Shown: in pieces, positions 15,033-62,786 of the stretch
Position numbering within the stretch: position 1 is the first letter of the stretch
Layout of the letters: each line of letters opens with the position of its first letter
Assembly (NCBI GenBank): GCA_963575745.1
Contig: CAUYUJ010000001.1
Coordinates: forward strand, 868,001 to 932,000
Direction of reading: 5' to 3'
DNA length: 64,000 nucleotides
Origin: Prorocentrum cordatum
Lineage: Eukaryota
Translations under genes and position numbers: made by a program
Notes under the pieces: generated by a model
Told to the model about the DNA's origin: nothing
Seen by the model: the letters and a program-made list of their open reading frames with translations, nothing else
Database searches by the model: none

Positions 15033-15154
15033 AGGAAAAAAATTTGATTGGGTTTTCTGGGATTGTTCAAAAATAGTCAAAATATTGCCTGGGGGCGATG
15101 TTTGAACCATTTTTTATTCTCTTGCACATGGTGTCTAGAGCTCCGACCACTTGG

Positions 15155-16560
15155 TTTCGGCACGGCCCCCCCCCTCCATCACCCACACATTCCACCAGCC
15201 AGCGCGCCCTTCCGCCCCGACCCCTTTATTTCGGCACGGCACACCCCTCCGCCCCGACCCATGTATTTCGGCACGGCACACATCCTCCGCATCCCCCCGC
15301 CCACCAGCCAGCGCGCCCCTCCGCCCCGACCCCCTTCATTCCGGCACGGCACACCCCTCCGCCCCGACCCCCTGATGTCGGCACGGCACACCGCCTCCGC
15401 ATCCCCCCACCCACCAGCCAGCGCGCCCTTCCGCCCCGACCCCTTTATTTCGGCACGGCACACCCCTCCGCCCCGACCCTTTATTTCGGCACAGCGCCCC
15501 TCCGCCCCGACCCCTTGTATTTCGGCACAGCACACCCTCCGCCCCTGACCCCTTTATTTCGGCACGGCACACCGCCTCCGCATCCCCCCACCCACCAGCC
15601 AGCGCGCCCTTCCGCCCCGACCCCTTTATTCCGGCACAACACACCCCTCCGCCCCGACCCCTTTACTTCGGCACGGCACACCCCCTCCCCCCCCCCACCC
15701 CCACCCCGCCCCGACCCATTTTATTCAGCACGGCACACCCTCTGCCATTGACCCTTGATGTCGGCACGGCACCCCCTCCGCATCCCCCACCCACCAGCCA
15801 GCGCGCACCCTCCGCCCCGACCCGTGTATTTCGGCACGCCCCCCCCCGCGCGCCCCTCCGCGCCGGCCCTTTCATTTCGGCACGGCGCACCTCCGCCCCG
15901 ACGCCTTTATTTCGGCACGGCACACCCCCTCCGCATCCCCCCCGCCCACCACCAGCGCGCCTCGCCCCGACCCTTTTTATTTCGGCACGGCACCCCCTCC
16001 GCCCCGACCCCTTTATTTCGGCACGGCACCCCCCCTCCACATTCCGCCCCCCCCCCACCAGCCAGCGCGCCCCTCCGCCCGACCCCTTTATTCCGGCACG
16101 GCACACCCCTCCGCCCCGACCCTTTATTTCGGCACGGCACACACCCTCCGCATCCCCCCGCCCACCAGCCAGCGCGCCCCTCCTCCCCGACCCATTTATT
16201 TTGGCACGGCACACCCCTCCGCCCCGACCACTTCATGTCGGCACGGCACCCCCTTTCCGCATCCCCCCACCCACCAGCCAGCGCACCCCTCCGCCCCGAC
16301 CCTTCATTTCGGCACGGCGCCCCCCCGCATCCCCCACTTACCAGCCAGGGCGCCCCCTCCGCCCCGCTACCTCTTTATTTCGGCACGGCCCCCACTCCCT
16401 CCCCGCGCGCCCTGCGCGCCCCCTCCGCAGCCCCCCACCCGCCAGCCATCGCGCCCCTCCGCCCCGACCCCTGCATTGCGCCCCCCCCCACCCACCCACC
16501 CACTCACAAGCCAGCGCGCCCCTCCGCCCCGACCCGTCGATTTCGGCACAACACACCTAT
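15155..16560. repeat. C-rich minisatellite (~36-bp unit cccctccgccccgacccctttatttcggcacggcaca with an optional cccaccagccagcgcg insert)
   Basis: More than 20 degenerate tandem copies. Confidence 0.95.
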
Positions 16561-17693: not shown

Positions 17694-19849
17694 CCCGGAG
17701 ATCCGAGGCCGCACATCGACAAGCAGATCTTCGGACGACCGGCGTCGCGGGGCGGAGCGGTCGCTCGCTCTCGCGAGGGCTGGGAGGAGCGACCAGGCCC
17801 CGGCTCAGAGAGACCACGGTCGAGCAACTGTGCTCAGCGTGACTCGCCCCCTGGCCGCCCTCGTGGTGTGCACTCTCTACGCTTAAGTCGGGCGCGTCCC
17901 TCTACAGGAGGAATATTCAAAAATAGTTTACAATGTAATCTGGGGGCGGTTTTTGGATTATGTTTGATTTGGAGTATGTTTAACCTATTTTTGATTTTTC
18001 GTCCAAGATCCGCCGGTGGGGGGACATGCCCGACCTGACTCTACGCCTGGGGCCCTCCCGCGTTCCCCCTCCGCGGCCGCCCTCCTCTTTTCCTCTCGTC
18101 TCGTGTACCCCAGCCGCGCGCGGCCCGCCGGCTTTCCACCGCGCCGGCGCTCGCCATCGCTGACGACCATGAAATCGCGCTGCCTGTTCTGGTCCACCGC
18201 GCCCTCGACGCGACACGCGAACCACGTCCCCGTCCTGGAGCGTCAACGTCAACGCCCCGAGCGTTGCGAAGCCTCCCGTCCTGCGAGGCGGGCCAGCACG
18301 GTTTCCGACTGCACGGCGCAGTGCGTCCCCGGGGCCACCGCCGCGACACGCGAAACACAAATCCCTGACCGTAGCTTACACAGTGGGCATCTCGAACAAG
18401 AAACCAGCCAGCCAGCAGGTGCCCCACGGAATGTCATTGTCGCCCGATGGCTTTGATATGCCCGCACGAACCTCCCGCCTTCTGCGGAGCGGTGCGACAC
18501 GCCGATATCCGCGCGCAGGGTATGCAGTCAAGACGCTGAAAGAAGGGCCACTTGGGGGTTCAGGGGGCGGGCTCTGGTTTTCGGGCCGTTCCCCAGATCT
18601 GAGCCGTGGGAGACATTTCGTGGCCGAGGCTCGCCGTGTCCGCCCCAGGGAGCTCCCAACTCGACGACAAACGTGCCCCAAGATTTCTTACGGCGGGATG
18701 CCTGACCGCAGCTACACGCTGTGCATCTCCCCCCCCACCCTCTGGCGCCTGGCCGTCGCCTCGCCTGCCCCTTGTGGTAGCAAAGAGGTGGGCCGACGGC
18801 TTCGCTGCCGTAGGCGGGCCCGCCTGCCTGCGCGCAGTACGCCGCCTCCCCATCACTGGGGCCAGTCTGGCTGTGCAGGGCGCGAGTCGAGCGGAGGTAT
18901 GGTAGCACGCTGGCCGCAGCGTGTCGCCAGGGCCGCCGCCGCGACGCGCCGAGCAAAAGCATAGGATGCACGTACCGGGAGGCTAGGCTCCGAGTCGGCG
19001 CTGGCATACGTATTCCTGATCGAAGGTTGGGCAAATTTGGCTGCATCCGCCGATCCAGGCCTGATGTGGCGCAACCCCGCTCGATCCAACCTAGTCCTGG
19101 GCTTCCTCCCGGCCTGCTCTGGCTCGATGGCCCCTCAATCGGGCTTCGTAGCCCTTACTCGTTCTGACGAAGACCTCCCAGGACCTGCCCCCCAAAAGAG
19201 TTCCTGGCCGTGGCTCGGAACGGGCAAGGACGAGGATAAATCCGTTCCAGAGCGTCCCGGAACGCTTTCAAAACGTTCTGGAACGTTCTGAGGTGGCCGC
19301 GGCGCCCGAGAAATCCTCCGGAGCCGCGTGATCTCAGAGATTCTCGATTTGTCCTCACCCGATATTGTCTTCGACCTGGCTTCGTCTTATCCTGCCTCCT
19401 CAAAGAACTTCCGGCCATGGCCTCGCTCCTGCCCAAGTGTCGGGGGCGGCAAGAAGGGGGGTGGTGATCCGGGGAGGATATCATAGCCTTGGCCATGAGA
19501 TCTCCCCTGATGTCATGGCGCTTCTGCCTATTTCAATTCGTCCCCCCCCCCCCCCTGGGCCGCGCACATGTCGGCGGCTATGGTTTGCGCGCGCGCCCTC
19601 CCCCCTCTTGGACGCCCCCCCTCTTGGCCGCCCCCGACCGCATGCCGTGGAGCGGCGGCGGGCAGGAGAGCGGTTTGGGGGGCCGTGGGGCCCGCGGCAG
19701 GCCGCAGCCGCGCCCCCGCGGCAGCCCGCGGCCGGCGTGCCGCGCTCGCCCTGCAGGGGAGGCGCGGTGGGTGCCAGCTCCCGCCTCCTCTCCCGTGTCC
19801 TGCCTCCTCTCCCGCATCCCGCATCCTCCCCCGTCCTGCCTCCTACCTC

Positions 19850-20020
19850 CTGCCTCTTCCTCCTCCTGCTCCTCCCTCTCCTCCTCCTCCTCCCTCTCCT
19901 CCTCCTCCTCCTCCTCCTCCTCCTCCTCCTCCTCCTCCTCCTCCTCCTCCTCCTCCTCCTCCTCCTCCTCCTCCTCCTACTCCTCTTCCTCCTCCTCCTC
20001 CTCCTCCTCCTCCTCCTCCT
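19850..20020 (+). repeat. (TCC)n microsatellite directly 5' of the LINE
   Basis: Nearly pure tcc run ending at the SL. Confidence 0.95.
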
Positions 20021-20042
20021 TCCGTAGCCATTTTGGCTCAAG
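20021..20042 (+). other. Perfect dinoflagellate spliced-leader sequence at the 5' end of a LINE
   Basis: TCCGTAGCCATTTTGGCTCAAG matches DinoSL 22/22. It is followed by ATG, not by the GT donor of an SL RNA gene. Confidence 0.97.
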
Positions 20043-20177
20043 ATGATGGTGCCTGCGGCGTCCTTCATGGATACCGCTAGTCCGCGGCTAGTCCCCAAGC
20101 TTTTGCCGCCACAACCACGGGCGTGCGGCAGCCCACAGCTCATCCTGCTTCTCACCTTGGCATTGCAGGCTGCCATA

Positions 20178-20305
20178 CATATCGGCTCGACCGAGCCCTT
20201 CATATCGCTCGTCGAGCCCAGCTCCGAGCACTTCATATCGCCCGTCGAGCCCTGCTCCGAGCACTTCATATCGCCCGTCGAGCCCAGCTCCGAGCACCTC
20301 ATATC
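20178..20305 (+). repeat. 33-bp tandem repeat in the LINE 5' UTR
   Basis: catatcgcccgtcgagcccagctccgagcactt, about 3.5 copies. Confidence 0.85.
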
Positions 20306-20503
20306 CGACGCCGAGCTGCGCTCCGCGTCCCAGGCCTCCGCCGTCGAGCCCAACTCCGAGCACGCCATCCTCGCCGTGAACGTTGCCCGCCCCGAGTTCT
20401 GCCGCCAGCATCTCCGCCAACCACGTATTGGCACCGCAGCCGCCCTGGACATTGGACAACTGTACAACAGCCGCTCATTGGACCTGCCCTACCATCCGCT
20501 ACA

Positions 20504-21990
20504 ATGTCGTCAAGCAGTGATGAGAGATCGACGTCCCGCAGCGCTCCGACACGCAGAAGGAAAGAACGTCGCCGTGGACGCCAAGACAAAGATCGAGATG
20601 ACAAATGTTCCCGTGCCTCAGCTGCCAAGGCTACACTCGACGTCATGGGAGAAGCTGGCGTCGCATCGCAACTCGTGCGTGCGTCAGGGAGAGCCTCGGC
20701 GCCACCTTCACGTCCTGGTCGCTCGTCTGCGCGCCCGTCTACTCCGCCAACGTTTGCGATGGATGCCGACGACCTTCTACACCACGGTGATGTCGCTTGC
20801 CACGCAGCGGCTGCCCCCGTTCAAGCTCGCGATGGACAAGGGAATGCTCCGCCCTCCCAACCTCTTGCAGTCGAGGCTGCTCCAGCCGCTGGAGGACACC
20901 TACATGCAGACCCACTGGCAGGAGATCGCGACCCTTGGCGTGGCCAACACACCGCTGGACACTCGTCCGCCGTCGGAACCGCCGCCGCCCCTCATGGTTG
21001 GGACATACCAGCCTCTGTCGAAGCTGCTGGAGGCACTGCCACGCCTGGATCGATCCCAAGCATCCCAGGCTTGCATCCTGACGTCGAAGCTGCTCTTCAA
21101 CAAGTCATGCAGACTCAAGTCGAACACGCTGCCGCCACCTTCCAAGCCCAGGCCAACGCTCTTCTCAATGAATCACGTGAAAGCTTTCGCCAAATTCTCG
21201 CACAACAAGTCATTGCTACCGAACGCCGAGTGGATGTTCTACATGATGCCGTCGCACGCACCCGCCGTGAACAAGACCGTCAAGCCGACGAGCAGAAAAA
21301 GATGTGGCAGCAGATCGACCAGATGCGCGACACGCTCGCGCTCGCTGAAGCTCAGGCGCCCATCACGGACCTCACCAAGCTTGCGGACTGGGACCGCGCC
21401 CCCGACCCGACCATCTTCCCCATCGGCTGCCAGCGCCTCATCGCGCCCGACATTCTGCTCAACGACCTGCAGGAGTGGATCGCCTCCGCCAACGTTGACC
21501 GCAACGCCGTGGAGTTGCTGGGGGACGAGCCGTCCAGACGCTTCCTTCTTCAGGTCAAAGGAGATCGTGCAGCCGCAATCCCGCGAGCTCTCGCTCTTTC
21601 ACGTGCCCTACGAGATCCCGCTGACAGGTGGAAGCGCTTTGTCTCCACCGACACGACAGGTGCCCGAGTGGACATCTACCTCAATCCCTCAGTCCCGACA
21701 AGTCTCCCAAGCAGATCCGCACCGAGATCCAGTGCAAGAAGCTCCTGCAACTGCCCCAGCATCGCTACCCCGACAAGCCATGGATAGCCATCCGCACCAA
21801 GGGCGAGATCCATTGCAACGCCATGCCTGCTGCGCGCCTCGACGTCAAGGGCCAGGCCGACCCCGCCATCCTCGAGTGGAACGAGCACGCGTTCGAAGGC
21901 CATCACTTCAACGAAGTGGATCGCGGCGGCGTCCTCACTGCGTCCCAGGCGCTCTCCGCGGACACTGCGTCAGCAGCGTGGCGGGTTTAA
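20504..21990 (+). pseudogene. LINE ORF1 (coiled-coil, putative RNA-binding), one frameshift near 21690
   Basis: ATG at 20504 (MSSSSDERS) lies in ORF 20123-21787 with a Q/E/R-rich helical segment (ALQQVMQTQVE...WQQIDQMRDTLA). It continues in frame 21628-21990 (SPDKSPKQIRTEIQCKK...AWRV*). Position upstream of the endonuclease fits ORF1. Confidence 0.7.
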
Positions 21991-22039
21991 CCATCCCTGG
22001 TCGCCTTGGCGACCGAACGAGGACCCCGTCCCCAGCACC

Positions 22040-25000
22040 CTCATTACTTGGAATGCCAGAGCCCTCATGCGTCACAAGCGCCAGCGCCGCCGACGCAAAC
22101 AGGCCGCCCTGCTGAAGTTCATGCGCCGCCAATGCGTCATCCTCATCCAGGAGGTTCATGGCTCTGAGGCCCTGCTCCGCACGTGGGTGGACACGCAGCC
22201 GTACCCGTACAAGCTCTTCTTCTCCGAGTTCGTCGGCGACGATGACGCCGAGGCCCGCCCTGGCACTGGTGGCGTTGCTACGCTAGTGCCCTGGCTCACA
22301 CCAATGCAGCTCGAGCAGCTTGCTCCGCACCAACTGCCTACCTTCGTCCACGAGGAGATCGTCAAGGGCCGCATCCAGACTGTCTCCATCCAATGCCGTC
22401 ACGAACAACTCCATCGTCATCATGAATGTCCATAACCATGAGATCGACGCTCGCGGCCGCGCCCGAGTGCAACGCGCTTGGCATCAGCATCGCACCTGGG
22501 CCGAGATCGACTACCAGCACCGCACCTTCATCGCCATGGGTGACTTCAACACTGCCAGCCGCCCACCGAACAGCTTCCTGCAGCCCCAGCCTCAGCACGC
22601 GCGCCTTGCGCTGGACAACAGCGCCCGTCAGCAGCAGCCTTTCTGGAAAGCACAATTCGATTCCATGCTCGAAATTGAATCCGACTTACCGACCCGCTTC
22701 AACAAGTCCGACTTCTCCGCCTCAGCGATCGACCGCGTTTTCATCAGCTTGCCGCCCCATGCCATGCTCGAGCTCACATCGCAGATCAACATTGCACACA
22801 ACCCTGCCATCCTGTCCGACTCCTTCCTCAGCGACCATGCGATCATCTCCTACACCATTGGCATCAAGCCGCGCACGCCGACGAACGATCATGCTATCCC
22901 CCCGCGATCTTCCGCGACCCGAGCTACGCCAAGTACCTGGACCAACTGATCACCCACACCAAGACCCAGCACGTTCCCATCCAGAACCGCTGGCGCACGC
23001 ACAAGCGCCTCATGGTCGAAGCCGCGAGGCTCGTCCGCGACGAGTGGGTCAGCTCCATCGGGGACGGCAACAAATCCAACCATGCCGACGGACGGGCCCT
23101 CACGGCGCGCTCGATCTCGCGCTCGGTCTGGCGCCAGGATGTTGCTCTCGTTCGCCGCCTACAGTCCACCACCGACCTTGGCGCCAAGTACCTCTCGATC
23201 ACCGACGGCCTCATCACGATCATCAACCAGCCCGAGTTCGCTGACATGTCAGCCTCGCTCCACCGCGACTTCGAGGCTCGGCAACGCTCTCTGGCGCAAA
23301 GAGCGGCCCAGCGCCCCCCTGGTGCGGCAGGGGCCCTCGAGCCCGAGAAACTCCGCCGAATCTTGCGCGCCTCGCAGAGGCGGGCTCTCCTGTGGGCCCC
23401 CTGGAAGCGTCGTCTGGTCCTCCAGGGCATCAAAATCTCGGGACCAGATGGCCCCCCTGGGGTCGCCAGAGAGAGCTGCGATATGGCTGACGCCCTTCGC
23501 ACCTACTGGAAGCCCGTCTTCGCACACAAGCTCGTCGACTCCGTCAAGGTCAAGCAGTACATCGCCGAGCACATGCCGCTGGGGGCCACCATCGACGTGG
23601 GCGCGCCGACCAAGAAGCAGATCCGCGCCTTCCTGGCTCGCACCTCTCCGTCGGCCCCTGGTTCTGATTGCCTTCCTTATCGCGCCTGGCTCGCACGCGA
23701 CTCGTCGCTGGACCTGCTCGAGGACCTCTCGTTCCACCTCTGCTCGAACGCCAATTTCATCCACGACCTGAGCGACTCTGACTTCGCCTTCTTGCCGAAA
23801 GGGGACAACCTCGTCGGCGAGTTGCAAACCGACAGGGCGCCCGAGGACACGCGCCCGCTCTCGCTCAAGAACACTGATATCAAGGCCATCGCTGGCGCCG
23901 CCAACTTCCTTCTCAAACCCGCTGTGGCAGAGCGGACTCACAAGGCACAACAGGGTTTCGTCGTCGGCCGCAACTTCACCAAGCACATTGTCATTCTTGA
24001 CGCCAAGCACATTGATCACCATCCTGTCTTCACCAGCTTCGACTTCGCGGCGGCGTTCCCGTCTTTGGGTCGGGTCTGGCTCTTCGCGGCTCTCGAGCGC
24101 TTCGGGGTTCCCATCGGCCTCATGAGCCTCTTCCGCAACATGTACCACGCCCCGAACAGCTTCCTCAAGGTCGACGGCATCCGCCACTTCATGTTCGCCA
24201 TCGAGTCGGGCGTCGCTCAGGGCTGTCCCGCCAGTGGCTCTGCTTGGGCCATCGCGATGGACCCGCTCGTCCGCCACCTCGCCTCCTTCATCGAGCACCC
24301 CGACGGCACGCCCGACTTCGACAAAGGCTACCTCGGGGTCTGTGCGGACGACACCGGCCTGCTCACATTCTCGTTCGACACGCTGCGCAAGGCATCTGAG
24401 CCTTTTTCTGCTGCCGAGGAGCTCGCCCTTCTCGCCCTCAAACCACGCAAGTGTGTAATAGTGCCCCTGTGGGCGCCCGTCTCTCCTGCCACCACAGCCC
24501 AAACGAAAGCGCCCCTGGCCGACCTTTGCCCTTCCTGGGGTGGCTTCACGATTTCGGGGCGAGCCAAGTACCTCGGGACCTTCCTTGGACCGTCCTCCCC
24601 CCTTGCCCTTCAATGGCTCGCCCCAGGGCAAAAGCGGTGGCAGCGCAGTAATTTGCTAAATCTTGTCCAGTCTGGCAGCGACGCCACTGTCCGCCTATAT
24701 AACACTTCTGTCCTGTCCACGCTCAGCTACGTTGCTCAGTTCTTCCCGCTCGACTCCAAGATTGCTCGCCGTGAGCTGTATGTCTTCCACAAAATGCTCA
24801 GCATGCCGCCCAACTCTTTTCGCAAGGTAGATCTCATTTCGACGGCGGAATGGAGCCCGCCACCTGTCCTTCGTTCAGCCCAAGTCACATGTGCTGCGGC
24901 GGCCATTCGCACAGCCACTTTCACACTCAGTGGAGAATGGGAACCGTTCCTCCACCGCCTGCGAGACACCGCCTGGGAGGAGAGCACGATCCAATCCTTC

Positions 25001-25730
25001 CCTCGGTGGGAAGCTGGGCGCTGGTCCCCCCCCTTCTGGGAGGAGGCCTCGTCCATCGTGCAATTCTACCATGCCCTGTCTAGCGGGCAGCGTGTCTCGC
25101 CATTTTCCGCAGCAGCCGTGGCCCTGGCGTACCGCGCCGCACGAGCTGAAATCCGAGAAGCACCCGACGCCGACCCGCCGCGTCGCCCGAAGGTACAGAG
25201 AGCGGTCGCACTCGCGCTGCAGCGTGCCTTTTTCTCTTCGCCGTTCACAGTCACCCTCGCGAAGCGCCTTGCAGCGTGGGGCCTTCAGAATACGCCGCCG
25301 CCCCCTGAGCTCGCCACCCGCTGGACTACTCTCGCGAAAGCGCTTGGAGAGGTCCGTCCCAGCTGGCGCTGGGCGGTTTTCAAAACGCTCAGTGGCGGGT
25401 GGACGCATGCATGTACTACTAGCTCAGCGCTCGTGTGTATTCGGTTGCCCGAACGCCCATTCTTTTCCCCACTACCTCTCCTGCTCCGTCCTCCTGAGCC
25501 TCCTCTGGTCCCCCGACCCCGCTCCGCTCCTCAGCACATATACATCGTGGGGCTTAGGCCCTGCAGCAGCGTACCCTTCCGAACCTGCCAGCGACCTCTC
25601 GTTGCGGCAGACGATTCGCAGGGTTGCGCTCGCTTTCCACATGTACAACAAAATGAAGCAACACGCAGCGCCGTCGCCAGCAAATATTGCTGCAGCGATG
25701 GCCGCAGCGAAATCACTCCTGTGGCGTTGA
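22040..25730 (+). pseudogene. LINE ORF2: AP-endonuclease, reverse transcriptase and Cys/His finger; frameshifts near 22400, 22900 and 25405
   Basis: Joins ORF-track pieces 22067-22435, 22320-22949, 23012-25795 and 24891-25730, with conserved motifs in the expected order. Confidence 0.9.
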
Positions 25731-25823
25731 GCCGCTGTCTGCCGTCTCACGCCTTGCCTCACTATCTAGGCAGGCTTGCGCGTGGGCTGGGCTGACAGAC
25801 GTGGCCGCCTCAAGGTACGTTCA

Positions 25824-25875
25824 CTCCTCCTCCTCCTCCTCCTCCTCCTCCTCCTCCTCCTCCTCTTCCTCCTCC
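25824..25875 (+). repeat. (TCC)n tract forming the LINE 3' boundary
   Basis: Follows gtacgttca directly; no poly(A). Confidence 0.95.
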
Positions 25876-25911
25876 TCCGTAGCCATTTTGGCTCAAGCCA
25901 TGTGGCTCAAG
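25876..25911 (+). other. Perfect DinoSL followed by a tandem relic SL
   Basis: TCCGTAGCCATTTTGGCTCAAG (25876-25897) then CCATGTGGCTCAAG (25898-25911), i.e. SL nt 8-22 with one deletion and one substitution. Confidence 0.95.
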
Positions 25912-26709
25912 ATCGTCGCCGCAGGCCCCGCCGCCGTCGCTCCGATGCCGGGTACGCAGGACGCCCGCTGCGCGCGCGTGTCGCAGGACGCCCTCCGCGG
26001 GGCGCTCCTGGCGACGCATGCTGCTGCTGGGCTGACGGGCGGGCATCGCGAGGCACAGCGCCTCGCGCGAGCCGCCGAGGGTCTCCTGAGGTCGGCCGTC
26101 GCTGTGCTTGCGGCGCCGCCCGCCCCCGCCGCGCCCCCCAGGGCAACGGCATCGCCCGCTGTTGCCTCTCGGCGGCGGCGCCGTCCGCGTGGGCGAGGTG
26201 GGCGAGCGGGTGCGGGAGTGGCGACGCTGGCGGCGGCGATGGAGTGCGACGCGGAGGACGAGGAGGAAGGAGTGGTGCGCGCTGCGATGGGCGACGCGGC
26301 GCAGGGCAAGGACAACAGCACGGGCCAGGGCGGCCCGACGCCACTCCATGGCGCCGCAGCGCCGCGGGCGCTTGCTGGCCCCTCCGAAGCGGCCGAGGTG
26401 GAGCAGGACGCGCAGGTCGGTGAGGACCTGATCGACGACACCTGGGCCGATGGCCTGCGGCGGGCGGCGGCTCCTGCGGCAGTCGCTGCGGGAAGCGCGG
26501 GGCGCCCCAGGCAGAAGGGCGATCGCGTCCGCATCGTGGAGGGCCAGTACGCGGGGCGCACTGGCACGGTCGTCGGTGCAGGCGAAGCGGTCGCCCGAGT
26601 CCGCATCGATGGCGCTGGGCTGCGCACGAAGCTCGCCTTCGAGCCGTTCGGCAACATCGTGCGGGAGGACGGCGGGGGCAGCTCCGGTGCGGCGGGGGGA
26701 GGACGATAA
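25900..26709 (+). CDS. Intronless Ala/Gly-rich protein (269 aa) with a C-terminal KOW motif; retrocopy or non-autonomous element ORF
   Basis: First ATG after the SL is in frame with ORF 25687-26709. KGDRVRIVEGQYAGRTGTVV...VRID (~26515-26610) fits the KOW pattern of NusG/Spt5/L24/KIN17. Confidence 0.65.
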   Translation: MWLKIVAAGPAAVAPMPGTQDARCARVSQDALRGALLATHAAAGLTGGHREAQRLARAAEGLLRSAVAVLAAPPAPAAPPRATASPAVASRRRRRPRGRGGRAGAGVATLAAAMECDAEDEEEGVVRAAMGDAAQGKDNSTGQGGPTPLHGAAAPRALAGPSEAAEVEQDAQVGEDLIDDTWADGLRRAAAPAAVAAGSAGRPRQKGDRVRIVEGQYAGRTGTVVGAGEAVARVRIDGAGLRTKLAFEPFGNIVREDGGGSSGAAGGGR

Positions 26710-26849: not shown

Positions 26850-26904
26850 CTTCTTCTCCTTCTTCTCCTCCTCCTCCTCCTCCTCCTGCTCCTCCTCCTC
26901 CTCC
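26850..26904 (+). repeat. (TTC)/(TCC)n tract ending the KOW unit
   Basis: Directly visible. Confidence 0.9.
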
Positions 26905-27462
26905 TGCCGTCGCTGGCTTACTGCGGAAGACAGACGTGGTAAAGATCAATGGCTACCTGACGACACTGCGCGGGAAAGCGATGAGAACCCGCCCGCGGAC
27001 ATGATTGGCATCCAGAAATGGCCCTCGTCGCTGTCATCCGGGTGGGAGACGCTACGCCAGCATCTCTCTCGAATGCCTCTCTCGAAGCTGCAGCCAGTCC
27101 TCAGGACGCTGTCGGCGGCATTGACAACAAGCTACCTCATGCACGTCCACCCGCATAAACTCAACTCAACTACATATTCGGCCTACGGCGAGAACACATC
27201 GACCATGCTATCGCGCGCATGGCGGTCGCCTACAAGGCCTTCACTTGCCTGCGCCTCCACAAGCAGAGCAACCTGAACCCCTTCACGGCCTCCGACACCA
27301 AGGTCTGGGCGGTGGGCCACCGGGACAGATTCCTCAACAAGAACGTCGCGGCTGTCGCCGCCGCCCACCGTGCCCTGAGGCTGCCTGCTTGCCTCGTGGG
27401 CGGCGCGGGGCTGCGCAGCCGTCTATGATCGAACGGATCGTCCCCATCGGCGAACGTCCGCT
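26905..27462 (+). mobile_element. 5'-truncated 3' end of a related LINE
   Basis: WETLRQHL..LQPVLRTLSAALTTSYLMH and MAVAYKAF resemble WTTLAKAL..WAVFKTLSGGWT..MH and VALAFHMY of the upstream ORF2 C-terminus. Followed by (TCC)n. Confidence 0.6.
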
Positions 27463-27645
27463 CATCTTCCTCCTCCATATCCTCCTCGTCCTCCTCCTCT
27501 CCTCCTGTCCCTCCTTGTCCTGCCTCCTCCTCATCTTCCTCCTTCCGCCTCCTTCATGTTCCTCCTCCTCCTCTTCCTCCTCCTTCTCCTCCTCCTCCTC
27601 CTCCTCCTCGTCCTCCTCCTCCTCCTCCTCCTCCTCCTCCTCCAC
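27463..27645 (+). repeat. Degenerate (TCC)n tract closing the array
   Basis: Directly visible. Confidence 0.9.
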
Positions 27646-31371: not shown

Positions 31372-31393
31372 TCCGTAGCCATTTTGGCTCAAA
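31372..31393 (+). other. DinoSL (21/22) at the 5' end of the retrogene
   Basis: TCCGTAGCCATTTTGGCTCAAa. Confidence 0.95.
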
Positions 31394-31460: not shown

Positions 31461-31769
31461 ATGGCGCCGATGATGAAGTCCACGGTCATGACCAAGAGCG
31501 CCCTCACCGCAGCACTCGCGGAGGCCTGCGAGGTCAAGAGGGGCGTGATCGGCACGGTCTTGAGCACCCTCGCGAGCATTGCGACAAACGAGGCGAAAAA
31601 AAATGGTAAGTTCGTCATCCCGGGCGTTGCGATGATCAAGACCCGCCAGAAGAAGGCGACCAAGGCCGGGAAACGCGAGATCTTCGGGAAGGTTGTCATG
31701 GTGAAAGCAAAGCCGGCCAAGACCATCGTTAAGGCCTTCCCCGCAAAGGCCCTCAAGGACGAGTTCTGA
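31461..31769 (+). CDS. Dinoflagellate histone-like protein / major basic nuclear protein (bacterial HU-derived, HCc-like), intact intronless retrogene
   Basis: 102 aa, Lys/Ala-rich, HU-fold pattern MTKSALTAALAE...GKFVIPGVAMIK...KAKPAKTIVKAFPAKALKD, with strong GC3 codon bias. Confidence 0.9.
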   Translation: MAPMMKSTVMTKSALTAALAEACEVKRGVIGTVLSTLASIATNEAKKNGKFVIPGVAMIKTRQKKATKAGKREIFGKVVMVKAKPAKTIVKAFPAKALKDEF

Positions 31770-40189: not shown

Positions 40190-43190
<3,001 letters not shown>

Positions 43191-55044: not shown

Positions 55045-55232
55045 CCACTCCTACTCCCCTCTCCTCCCCCTCCGCCTCCGCCTCACCTTCGTCCTCCTCC
55101 TCCTCCTCTTCCTCCTCCTTCTCCTCCTCCTCCTCATCATCCTCCTCCTCCTCCTCCTCCGCCTCCTCATCATCATCATCCTCATCCTCATCCTCGTCCT
55201 CGTCCTCGTCCTCGTGCTCCTCCCCCCCCTCC
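55045..55232 (+). repeat. Degenerate (TCC)n tract
   Basis: Directly visible. Confidence 0.9.
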
Positions 55233-55254
55233 CCCGTCGCCATTTTGGCTCACG
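55233..55254 (+). other. Degenerate DinoSL (19/22) directly after (TCC)n
   Basis: cCCGTcGCCATTTTGGCTCAcG. Confidence 0.85.
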
Positions 55255-58700: not shown

Positions 58701-58877
58701 AGTATCGAAACTTCATGCGAAGCCGATTCGCAATCAGCAAAACCAACTGATCACAAGAGGGGTTACCACACCTGGCGATTGGTAAGACGTGTATGGTTTA
58801 CGGGCTTGGTTACCACACCTTGCGATTAAAGGGCCGAGGGAGTTCTCGCAGTTTGGGTTACCACGCCTTGCGATGGA

Positions 58878-59381
58878 TGTGCGTGAAGGGTGGCACCGAA
58901 TTTCAGAAATGTGGCAAATCCCCTGTGTTTTTGGACCCTGACCCCGCGGATCTGCGTGAGGGGTGGCGCCGAATTTCAGAAATGTGGCAAATCCCCTGTG
59001 TTTTTGGACCCTGACCCCGCGGATCTGCGTGAGGGGTGGCACCGAATTTCAGAAATGTGGCAAATCCCTGTGTTTTTGGACCCTGACCCCGCGGATCTGC
59101 GTGAGGGGTGGCACCGAATTTCAGAAATGTGGCAATGACCCCGCGGATCTGCGTGAGGGGTGGCACCGAATTTCAGAAATGTAGCAAATCCCCTGTGTTT
59201 TTGGACCCTGACCCCGCGGATCTGCGTGAGGGGTGGCACCGAATTTCAGAAATGTGGCAAATCCCATGTGTTTTTGGACCCTGACCCCGCGGATCTGCGT
59301 GAGGGGTGGCACCGAATTTCAGAAATGTGGCAAATCCCTTGTGTTTTTGGACCCTGACCCCGCGGATCTGCGTGAGGGGTG
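58878..59381. repeat. 73-bp tandem minisatellite, ~7 near-identical copies (one internally deleted)
   Basis: gcgtgaggggtggcaccgaatttcagaaatgtggcaaatcccctgtgtttttggaccctgaccccgcggatct; a diverged monomer lies at ~880-955. Confidence 0.97.
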
Positions 59382-62064: not shown

Positions 62065-62786
62065 AGCTGCGTGGCTCCCTGCCGTCGTCTGCTCGTCGGC
62101 ACCGCATGTCGTCGTCGTCGTCGTCGTCGCCTCCCGCCTTCCCAACATCATCCCCTGTCATCCTCGCGGTGAAAAAAAAACACGACGGGAGGTGTTTGCC
62201 AATTTCAGCCTGCGGGGGCACCTTGCTTGGCCTGGGACCACCAAAAACAGTTCGGGATGCGAAGTTTGTCTTGGGGCAAGGGGTCCAGAACCCTGAGGGT
62301 CCACGTCGCGAAAAAAACACGACGTCGGGGTCTGGGTGTCCAGATCTCCGACGAATTAGGGTTTTCATAGATTTGGCCCTTGAGGCCCGCTTTCGGGACA
62401 CGGATGAAAAAAATACGACGTCGTAGCTGCGTGGCTCCCTGCCGTCGTCTGCTCGTCGGCACCGCATGTCGTCGTCGTCGTCGTCGTCGCCTCCCGCCTT
62501 CCCAACATCATCCCCTGTCATCCTCGCGGTGAAAAAAAAACACGACGGGAGGTGTTTGCCAATTTCAGCCTGCGGGGGCACCTTGCTTGGCCTGGGACCA
62601 CCAAAAACAGTTCGGGATGCGAAGTTTGTCTTGGGGCAAGGGGTCCAGAACCCTGAGGGTCCACGTCGCGAAAAAAACACGACGTCGGGGTCTGGGTGTC
62701 CAGATCTCCGACGAATTAGGGTTTTCATAGATTTGGCCCTTGAGGCCCGCTTTCGGGACACGGATGAAAAAAATACGACGTCGTAG
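62065..62786. repeat. Exact 360-bp tandem duplication
   Basis: 62065-62424 reads identical to 62425-62784. Confidence 0.97.

Follow-up and report, generated by a model that had tools for sequence, protein, structure and literature searches.

A LINE copy of Prorocentrum cordatum begins with a perfect spliced leader, probably gained by trans-splicing of its RNA

The non-LTR elements CRE1, CRE2, SLACS and CZAR of trypanosomatids and NeSL-1 of nematodes encode a restriction-like endonuclease and reside inside spliced leader (SL) RNA genes, with the remainder of the gene flanking them. LINEs that target simple repeats are known from insects and fish, and simple-repeat tails have been found in other LINE clades. 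The trypanosome LINE L1Tc is described as having an internal promoter, Pr77, and unspliced transcripts (PMC1874656). In Symbiodinium, SymbioLINE was reported to encode an APE endonuclease and a reverse transcriptase (RT), to possess UTRs conserved at the 5' as well as the 3' end, to lack a poly(A) tail, and to carry a DNA methyltransferase in its ORF1 (de Mendoza et al. 2018, PMC5890265); the terms "spliced leader" and "DinoSL" are absent from the main text of that paper. Relic copies of the DinoSL upstream of dinoflagellate genes have been described under the term "mRNA recycling" (Slamovits & Keeling 2008, cited in PMC6050394; Song et al. 2017, PMC5585692). In several accounts these relics are taken as marks of gene retroposition by a machinery that is called unknown there (PMC5585692, PMC6050394, PMC12014239, PMC3942190). 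About a fifth of dinoflagellate genes are described as retrocopies marked by SL relics, with LTR copia elements favoured as the machinery (PMC6050394, PMC5585692). The passages on SL-relict genes in Song et al. (PMC5585692) report an enrichment for the GO term "RNA-dependent DNA replication" and do not describe LINE 5' ends. In the main texts of the openly accessible full-text literature we found no report of dinoflagellate LINEs starting with the DinoSL.

Here we analysed a stretch of 64,000 nucleotides of P. cordatum DNA with a G+C content of 62%, which is called the window throughout; features are placed on its plus strand unless stated otherwise. One copy of a LINE of the L1 superfamily, with APE and RT, was found in the 64-kb window and spans 20021-25824. 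The 5' end of this copy is a perfect dinoflagellate spliced leader: positions 20021-20042 on the plus strand read TCCGTAGCCATTTTGGCTCAAG and agree with the DinoSL (DCCGTAGCCATTTTGGCTCAAG) in 22 of 22 letters. Searching the window for the SL 21-mer with up to three mismatches gave four sites, at 20022 (0 mismatches), 25877 (0), 31373 (1) and 55234 (2), all on the plus strand, as compared to none in 100 shuffles. Directly 5' of the first SL lies a (TCC)n microsatellite of about 64 units (19824-20020, Tandem Repeats Finder), which is purer nearer to the SL. Directly 3' of it follows ATGATGG, and the A of this ATG, at 20043, opens the ORF2-frame reading. The SL RNA gene continues with GT behind the leader, as in GTACACATTGGG of Amphidinium (PMC12584245). 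At the LINE junction no SL intron was found, ATGATGG standing in the place of the GT, and the bases behind the four SLs of the window (ATGATG, CCATGT, ATTTGG and TCACAG) begin with GT in none of the four cases. No Rfam family was matched anywhere in the 64-kb window. Based on these data and on the comparison with related elements, we consider it very likely that 20021-25824 is a full-length, dead LINE copy whose leader came from a trans-spliced RNA that was copied by the element's own reverse transcriptase.

The ORF2-frame reading (20043-25730) opens at the SL-adjoining ATG and, as judged from frames and profile matches, comprises an N-terminal extension, APE, RT and a zinc knuckle. Within the N-terminal extension there is a 33-nt tandem repeat of 3.5 copies (20191-20305, Tandem Repeats Finder). 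ORF1 (20504-21990), located from the frames, contigs of other copies and tblastn, is nested in the same extension in another frame, with about 492 codons in intact copies; no Pfam domain was found in it. The APE endonuclease domain (22031-22904) is divided over two frames with the split at about 22389. Pfam detected Exo_endo_phos on 22320-22949 (1.3e-5), and a profile of the relatives described below matched both APE halves, 21788-22432 at 3.6e-16 and 22287-22946 at 1.2e-26. The reverse transcriptase and the conserved region behind it occupy 22859-25405 (RVT_1 in Pfam at 1.2e-14, and a profile built without the query). A C-terminal CX2C...HX4C motif at 25434-25484, here in a frame that differs from that of the RT, reads CVFGC...HYLSC and agrees with the CxFGC...HYxxC consensus of 20 relatives. 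For the ORF2 of one relative (L024), the best match among solved proteins was human L1 ORF2p (2.7e-25), ahead of R2. A restriction-like endonuclease was not found by Pfam in the window copy or in the intact relatives, which gave APE and RVT_1 only. The 3' untranslated end (25731-25824, from sequence and frames) has no poly(A) or A-rich tail, its last letters, ...GTACGTTCAC, passing directly into (TCC)n. Both flanks of the LINE are (TCC)n, so no unique target-site duplication is readable.

These results agree with the original prediction, made from the letters of the window, in several respects. It had placed a perfect 22/22 SL at the 5' boundary of the LINE, in an interval ending at 20045 that includes the ATG, and had noted that no SL intron is present there. 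It had also assigned the LINE to the APE type, which Exo_endo_phos, RVT_1 and the relatives' profile bear out, and had set it apart from CRE, SLACS, CZAR and NeSL elements; the window copy indeed has neither a restriction-like endonuclease nor an SL gene around it.

The window copy is dead. Four frame breaks (about 21685, 22389, 22897 and 25403-25458) and a stop at 21785 interrupt it, and each of them is missing in contigs that derive from other copies in public runs. At about 21685 the other copies are 8 nt shorter (one contig each in runs X1, X2 and X3), and it is this 8-nt insertion in the window copy that breaks ORF1. The other copies have an additional CA at 22389 (X1 only), an additional C at 22897 (X1 and X2) and differences of +11, -3, +2 and +1, in net +11, over 25403-25458 (one X1 contig), and at the stop at 21785 they carry a T>G change (six X1 contigs and one each in X2 and X3). 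When these offsets are applied to the coordinates, one frame of 5694 nt, in whole codons, would connect the ATG at 20043 with the stop at 25728-25730, and ORF1, beginning with the ATG at 20504 and ending with the stop at 21988-21990, would measure 1479 nt. In intact copies the SL-adjoining ATG would thus be predicted to open one ORF of about 1900 codons.

The LINE was multicopy in the three public runs. In X1 the summed contig depth was 48-264 over the LINE (48-107 over 19990-20622) as compared to 5-12 in the flank at 25898-26300. The stretch across the 5' junction (19990-20029), as well as 25816-25886, was masked as repeat in this read comparison. A contig of 219 nt in X2 aligns to 20030-20239 and has 9 further letters at the masked edge; should these be collinear, its end falls on 20021, the first base of the SL, a weak indication. 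Run X20, guessed to be RNA, gave three contigs, none of them on the 5' part of the LINE. A search of metagenome contigs with the ORF1 protein resulted in 107 pattern matches and no confirmed one. Viral contigs gave no match to the RT protein or to the pattern of SL plus ATGATGG, and prokaryote genome contigs gave none to a 24-nt pattern from 20043 onward.

Related LINEs were obtained from metagenome contigs. The window RT retrieved 28 proteins, at 25-41% identity except for one at 70% over 39% of the query, and an alignment of seven proteins led to 289 pattern matches and 115 confirmed loci, of which the best 80 (283,587 nt in total) were used. Their RT identity to the window LINE was 25-38%, and the comparison is therefore one with other families than that of the window. 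In these best 80 of 115 loci the SL 21-mer with up to three mismatches had 12 sites, which fell in 10 loci and were without exception on the RT strand. The 14-nt core of the DinoSL with up to two mismatches had 18 occurrences on the RT strand as compared to a single one on the opposite strand, about 0.9 being expected per strand. An 8-mer, GGCTCAAG, was present 24 times on the RT strand and 12 times on the opposite strand of the relatives' loci; taken alone as a relic it was rejected as too common, and L037 and L032 were kept as "no SL" or ambiguous.

A locus was considered to reach the 5' end of its element if the 5'-most ORF was closed at the contig start and its ATG lay over 60 nt from that start and over 1200 nt upstream of the RT, and 11 loci among the best 80 of 115 were selected by this rule. 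Five of the 11 (L010, L011, L012, L013 and L024) have the SL core within 900 nt 5' of the first LINE ATG, at a distance of 48-285 nt. Two more, L005 and L055, carry a 9-nt remnant only, TGGCTCAAG, at 24-32 and 10-18, respectively. No SL was found in the remaining four (L025, L032, L038 and L040). For L025 about 170 nt are available upstream, with an adapter-like start; its letters 1-50, as well as a loose end in X3 at window position 21746, resemble adapter and are presumably leftovers of assembly rather than biology. Additionally, the decayed locus L078 has an SL-like 21-mer with three mismatches at the expected distance.

A 15-nt relic behind an SL is known as the trace that is left when a new leader has been spliced on at the internal AG of an inherited one. 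Canonical relics of this kind, the SL followed by CCATTTTGGCTCAAG, were found in L011, L012 and L013, with one 15-nt relic each in L011 and L013 and two in L012, where the SL has three mismatches; L024 has several truncated ones. Because such relics mark re-splicing, the lineages of these four elements would have passed through at least two rounds, and the relics show that in the relatives the leader's internal AG had probably been the acceptor during earlier rounds. The window copy starts with one SL and no relic. This lone SL fits with a single round, or with re-splicing at the terminal AG of the leader.

The original prediction had expected full-length copies to begin with an SL or with an SL plus relics. 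In the related families five of the 11 loci begin with an SL, four of these having relics, and two more keep remnants, and full-length copies without any SL, named beforehand as what would speak against the prediction if they were the majority, amount to four of 11. Its central proposal, that the LINE transcript is itself trans-spliced and fully reverse transcribed, finds support in this comparison and appears probable. The further suggestion that an AG of the SL acts as a self-renewing acceptor was supported in part, by the internal-AG relics of the relatives, and the window copy, being without a relic, gave it no such support.

In all 10 of the SL-bearing loci that were examined, the first ATG behind the SL or relic is the start of an ORF, the lengths ranging from 117 codons, in a case cut by the contig end, to more than 1695 codons. 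The distances from SL or relic to this ATG are 0-320 nt in these 10 loci, for which the composition predicts about 17 ATGs in all. This layout would look like a scanned 5' UTR that starts at the leader. In L012, L005, L013 and L010 the first two ATGs behind the SL open two frames, the long APE/RT frame and ORF1, and in the window copy no ATG is found in any frame over 20070-20503, with 3.2 expected. L024 has the usual order, ORF1 and then ORF2.

Five diverged elements have an ORF1, of which 318-393 codons were tested, that is wholly enclosed by the upstream portion of the long frame: the window copy (20043-21990), L012 (244-1247), L013 (268-1338), L005 (140-1236) and L004 (123-1127). Synonymous shuffling of ORF1 introduced 2.9-4.8 stops into the long frame, as compared to the 0 seen, and 20, 8, 0, 3 and 1 of 500 shuffles reached 0 long-frame stops in the five elements. 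In the reverse direction, synonymous shuffling of the long frame introduced 8.6-10.4 stops into the ORF1 frame, where 0 or 1 is seen, and 0 of 500 shuffles did as well. Control parts of the RT had no such stop depletion. Residues 176-395 of the window ORF1 weakly matched the nested ORFs of L012, L005 and L004 (tblastn, E 3e-6 to 5e-4). The N-terminal extensions of the long frame are dissimilar between families, the absence of stops alone speaking for their coding, and they may need only to stay open. The nested ORF1 and the long frame may represent dual coding that is read by leaky scanning.

The same layout bears on the question of whether the stretch from SL to ORF1 is the 5' piece of an unrelated SL-tagged retrogene in which the LINE landed, or with which it recombined. 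The 461 nt from the SL to the ORF1 ATG have no match in the relatives and contain the 33-nt tandem repeat, as such a foreign piece might. However, the stretch is open from the SL-adjoining ATG in the frame that runs on into APE/RT, its X1 depth is at repeat level, and its lack of ATGs over 20070-20503 is as expected if scanning must reach the start of ORF1. The relatives, moreover, have a like layout of long frame and nested ORF1 behind their SLs, with an ORF1 weakly homologous to that of the window. We therefore regard a foreign origin of this stretch, which the original prediction had named as the finding that would overturn it, as highly improbable; frame, ORF1 homology and X1 depth all point to a 5' part that belongs to the LINE.

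Downstream of the LINE, 51 nt of (TCC)n (25825-25875, sequence and Tandem Repeats Finder) lead to a second perfect SL (25876-25897), which together with a relic-like CCATGTGGCTCAAG covers 25876-25911. An ORF with a KOW motif (25900-26709; KOW at 5e-5) has its ATG inside this relic, and behind the ORF come TC-rich sequence and, at 26856-26905, (TCC)n, without poly(A). Because the relic-like CCATGTGGCTCAAG and the KOW ORF follow, and no SL intron does, the second SL is by its sequence context the leader of a neighbouring retrogene and not a remainder of an SL gene. The expectation that nothing of an SL gene lies past the 3' end was thus confirmed as to the SL intron, with the amendment that the flank does hold a second perfect SL. 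A candidate 5'-truncated LINE ending in (TCC)n at 26906-27467 was rejected, as no tblastn or profile match was obtained outside 20021-25900.

The third SL of the window (31372-31393) agrees in 21 of 22 letters, the last G being an A, and does not adjoin (TCC)n. It lies 67 nt 5' of a gene for a histone-like (bacterial-type DNA-binding) protein of 102 codons (31461-31769; Bac_DNA_binding at 3.8e-7), and about two copies of a repeat of about 180 nt precede it; this repeat begins with ACAAGATTTG, the same letters that adjoin the third SL. The fourth, a decayed SL at 55233-55254 with two mismatches in the 21-mer, comes directly after a (CTC)n array, the two covering 55048-55254 (sequence and Tandem Repeats Finder). 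Three of the four SLs are thus found directly behind (TCC)n, as are 2.07% of the plus-strand positions (P for at least three of four = 3.5e-5). Runs of (TCC)n with at least six perfect units number 18 in the 64 kb, 11 on the plus and 7 on the minus strand. Other repeats of the window are an (ACG)n array, imperfect and about 3 kb long (40191-43188, about 996 units, 74% matches), a C-rich tandem array at 15143-16535 with units of about 36, 109 and 216 nt, and young tandem repeats at 58875-59381 and 62065-62786, whose units measure 73 nt (97-98% identity) and 360 nt (two copies, 100% identity).

Both the LINE and the KOW retrogene have (TCC)n behind them and neither has poly(A). As their junctions are common to both, this one locus suggests that the LINE made the KOW retrogene. 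Among the relatives, L010, L011, L073, L006, L067 and L055 have (TA)n or A/T-rich sequence in front of the SL, and the LINE 3' ends are A-rich and then (TA)n-like in L006, L010, L031, L033 and L055. A LINE 3' end, an A-rich or (TA)n tail and then an SL heading the next copy were seen in this order in L006 (2325-2402), L067 (2735-2782) and L015 (2641-2812). This arrangement is head-to-tail, like the LINE, (TCC)n, SL and retrogene of the window. It fits with new copies sitting on the tails of older ones, by priming on a nicked simple repeat or by template jumps.

An SL on either side of the LINE could also mean that the leader is that of the target, an SL-less LINE having inserted behind the leader of the KOW retrogene, or an SL-seeking LINE having done so, with a long duplication of (TCC)n plus SL. 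Site-specific LINEs do occur in SL genes of other phyla. A block of (TCC)n plus SL of about 75 nt is present on both sides of the LINE with 94.7% identity, and SLs also adjoin LINE ends in L006 and L015, where they lie 57-151 nt past the ORF2 stop (two of eight loci with a recognisable ORF2 C-terminus); in L067 an SL is found behind the LINE 3' end too, as judged by the 3' end motif. The two blocks are out of register, however, with a CTCTTCC variant that precedes the upstream SL by 33 nt and the downstream SL by 9 nt, and there is an extra T at the upstream junction. The absence of an SL intron from the junction likewise speaks against a duplicated target. A target duplication of 75 nt is also long for APE-type elements, and a chance insertion would not be expected to bring the ATG of the APE/RT frame directly to the SL. 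Among the relatives, the three loci whose 5' end carries an SL or remnant and in which at least 570 nt are covered past the ORF2 stop (L010, L024 and L055) all lack a second SL past the 3' end. In L006 the ORF behind the downstream SL is a LINE ORF1, 59% identical to that of L010 (E 8e-13), and this SL is thus the head of a new copy rather than a duplicated target. Taken together, we judge an origin of the leader from the target to be unlikely, and acquisition by the LINE's own RNA continues to be the preferred explanation.

A third way to place an SL before a LINE is a jump of the RT from unspliced LINE RNA to a free SL donor RNA, or an artefact of assembly or cDNA. LINE enzymes are known to jump between templates at RNA 5' ends, and the head-to-tail joints of LINE end, SL and next copy in the window and in L006 could be read in this way. 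A jump to the donor RNA would, however, have copied its intron between SL and LINE, where none is found. An artefact is hard to reconcile with an SL embedded in genomic (TCC)n, and with the sense orientation of all the SLs, of which the window has four and independent metagenome contigs have 12. The chance that a jump or an artefact produced the junction is in our estimate very slight, and a leader present on the LINE RNA before reverse transcription is favoured over it.

Based on these comparisons the following cycle is proposed for the window family. The LINE RNA would gain its leader by trans-splicing, like other dinoflagellate messages, and the LINE's own reverse transcriptase would copy this RNA to its extreme 5' end during target-primed insertion. 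The leader would serve as the cap-proximal 5' UTR, the start codon of the long APE/RT frame adjoining it in the window family. The genomic leader carries two AGs, one internal and one terminal, which could accept a new leader once the copy is transcribed from outside. Because the leader AGs can accept a new leader, no promoter would need to travel with the LINE. Insertion would occur within or next to a simple repeat, which is (TCC)n in the window and A-rich sequence or (TA)n in the relatives, and the neighbouring SL-tagged retrogene with its like junctions may have been produced by the same machinery. The LINE family would seem to have spread as ordinary spliced messages.

A broader reading would make this a promoterless LINE clade that acts as the engine of dinoflagellate gene retroposition. 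Read-through transcripts would be trans-spliced at the AG of the inherited leader, which would release the LINE. The leader would act as 5' UTR, in the window family as the entire 5' UTR, and both the long APE/RT frame and the nested ORF1 would be reached from the leader cap via the first two AUGs. Insertion would be primed on simple repeats, and cellular messages with matching 3' tracts would be copied alongside and end up with the same junctions. As a whole we hold this reading only tentatively and think it rather doubtful. The clade has its own leader and relic arrays, head-to-tail SL-tagged neighbours and, in the window, junction repeats in common with a retrogene, and in combination these three features make it a concrete, testable candidate for the retroposition machinery.

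In comparison with described systems, the window LINE resembles CRE, SLACS, CZAR and NeSL-1 in that a non-LTR element is physically joined to SL sequence. It differs from them in having APE, in carrying the whole SL at its 5' end solely as part of the copy, and in its location between a microsatellite and a retrogene without an SL intron. With LINEs that target simple repeats it shares, for the single window copy, the presence of one repeat on both flanks and in place of a 3' poly(A). Unlike in those elements the repeat varies by family, being (TCC)n in that of the window and A-rich or (TA)n in those of the relatives. Like SymbioLINE, the window element is a dinoflagellate LINE that has APE and RT and lacks poly(A). 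In contrast to SymbioLINE, the ORF1 of the window is without a Pfam domain and lies nested within the ORF2 frame. L1Tc and ingi are likewise APE-type LINEs of an organism that trans-splices its messages. Compared to the descriptions of L1Tc, the dinoflagellate LINEs appear to travel as spliced, leader-capped messages, which we infer to be a way for a LINE to dispense with an internal promoter where trans-splicing makes the 5' ends, the opposite of the solution found in L1Tc. The SL-tagged retrogenes of dinoflagellates resemble the LINE in that a sense genomic SL heads an intronless transcribed unit, of which the KOW and histone-like neighbours are ordinary examples, and in that canonical 15-nt relics, the record of repeated rounds, occur in the relatives of the window LINE. 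The window LINE would in this respect behave like an ordinary dinoflagellate retrocopy. It differs from the retrogenes in the lack of a poly(A) remnant and in the simple repeats at both junctions, and above all in that the tagged unit is the retroelement itself, so that the tag marks its own replication cycle.
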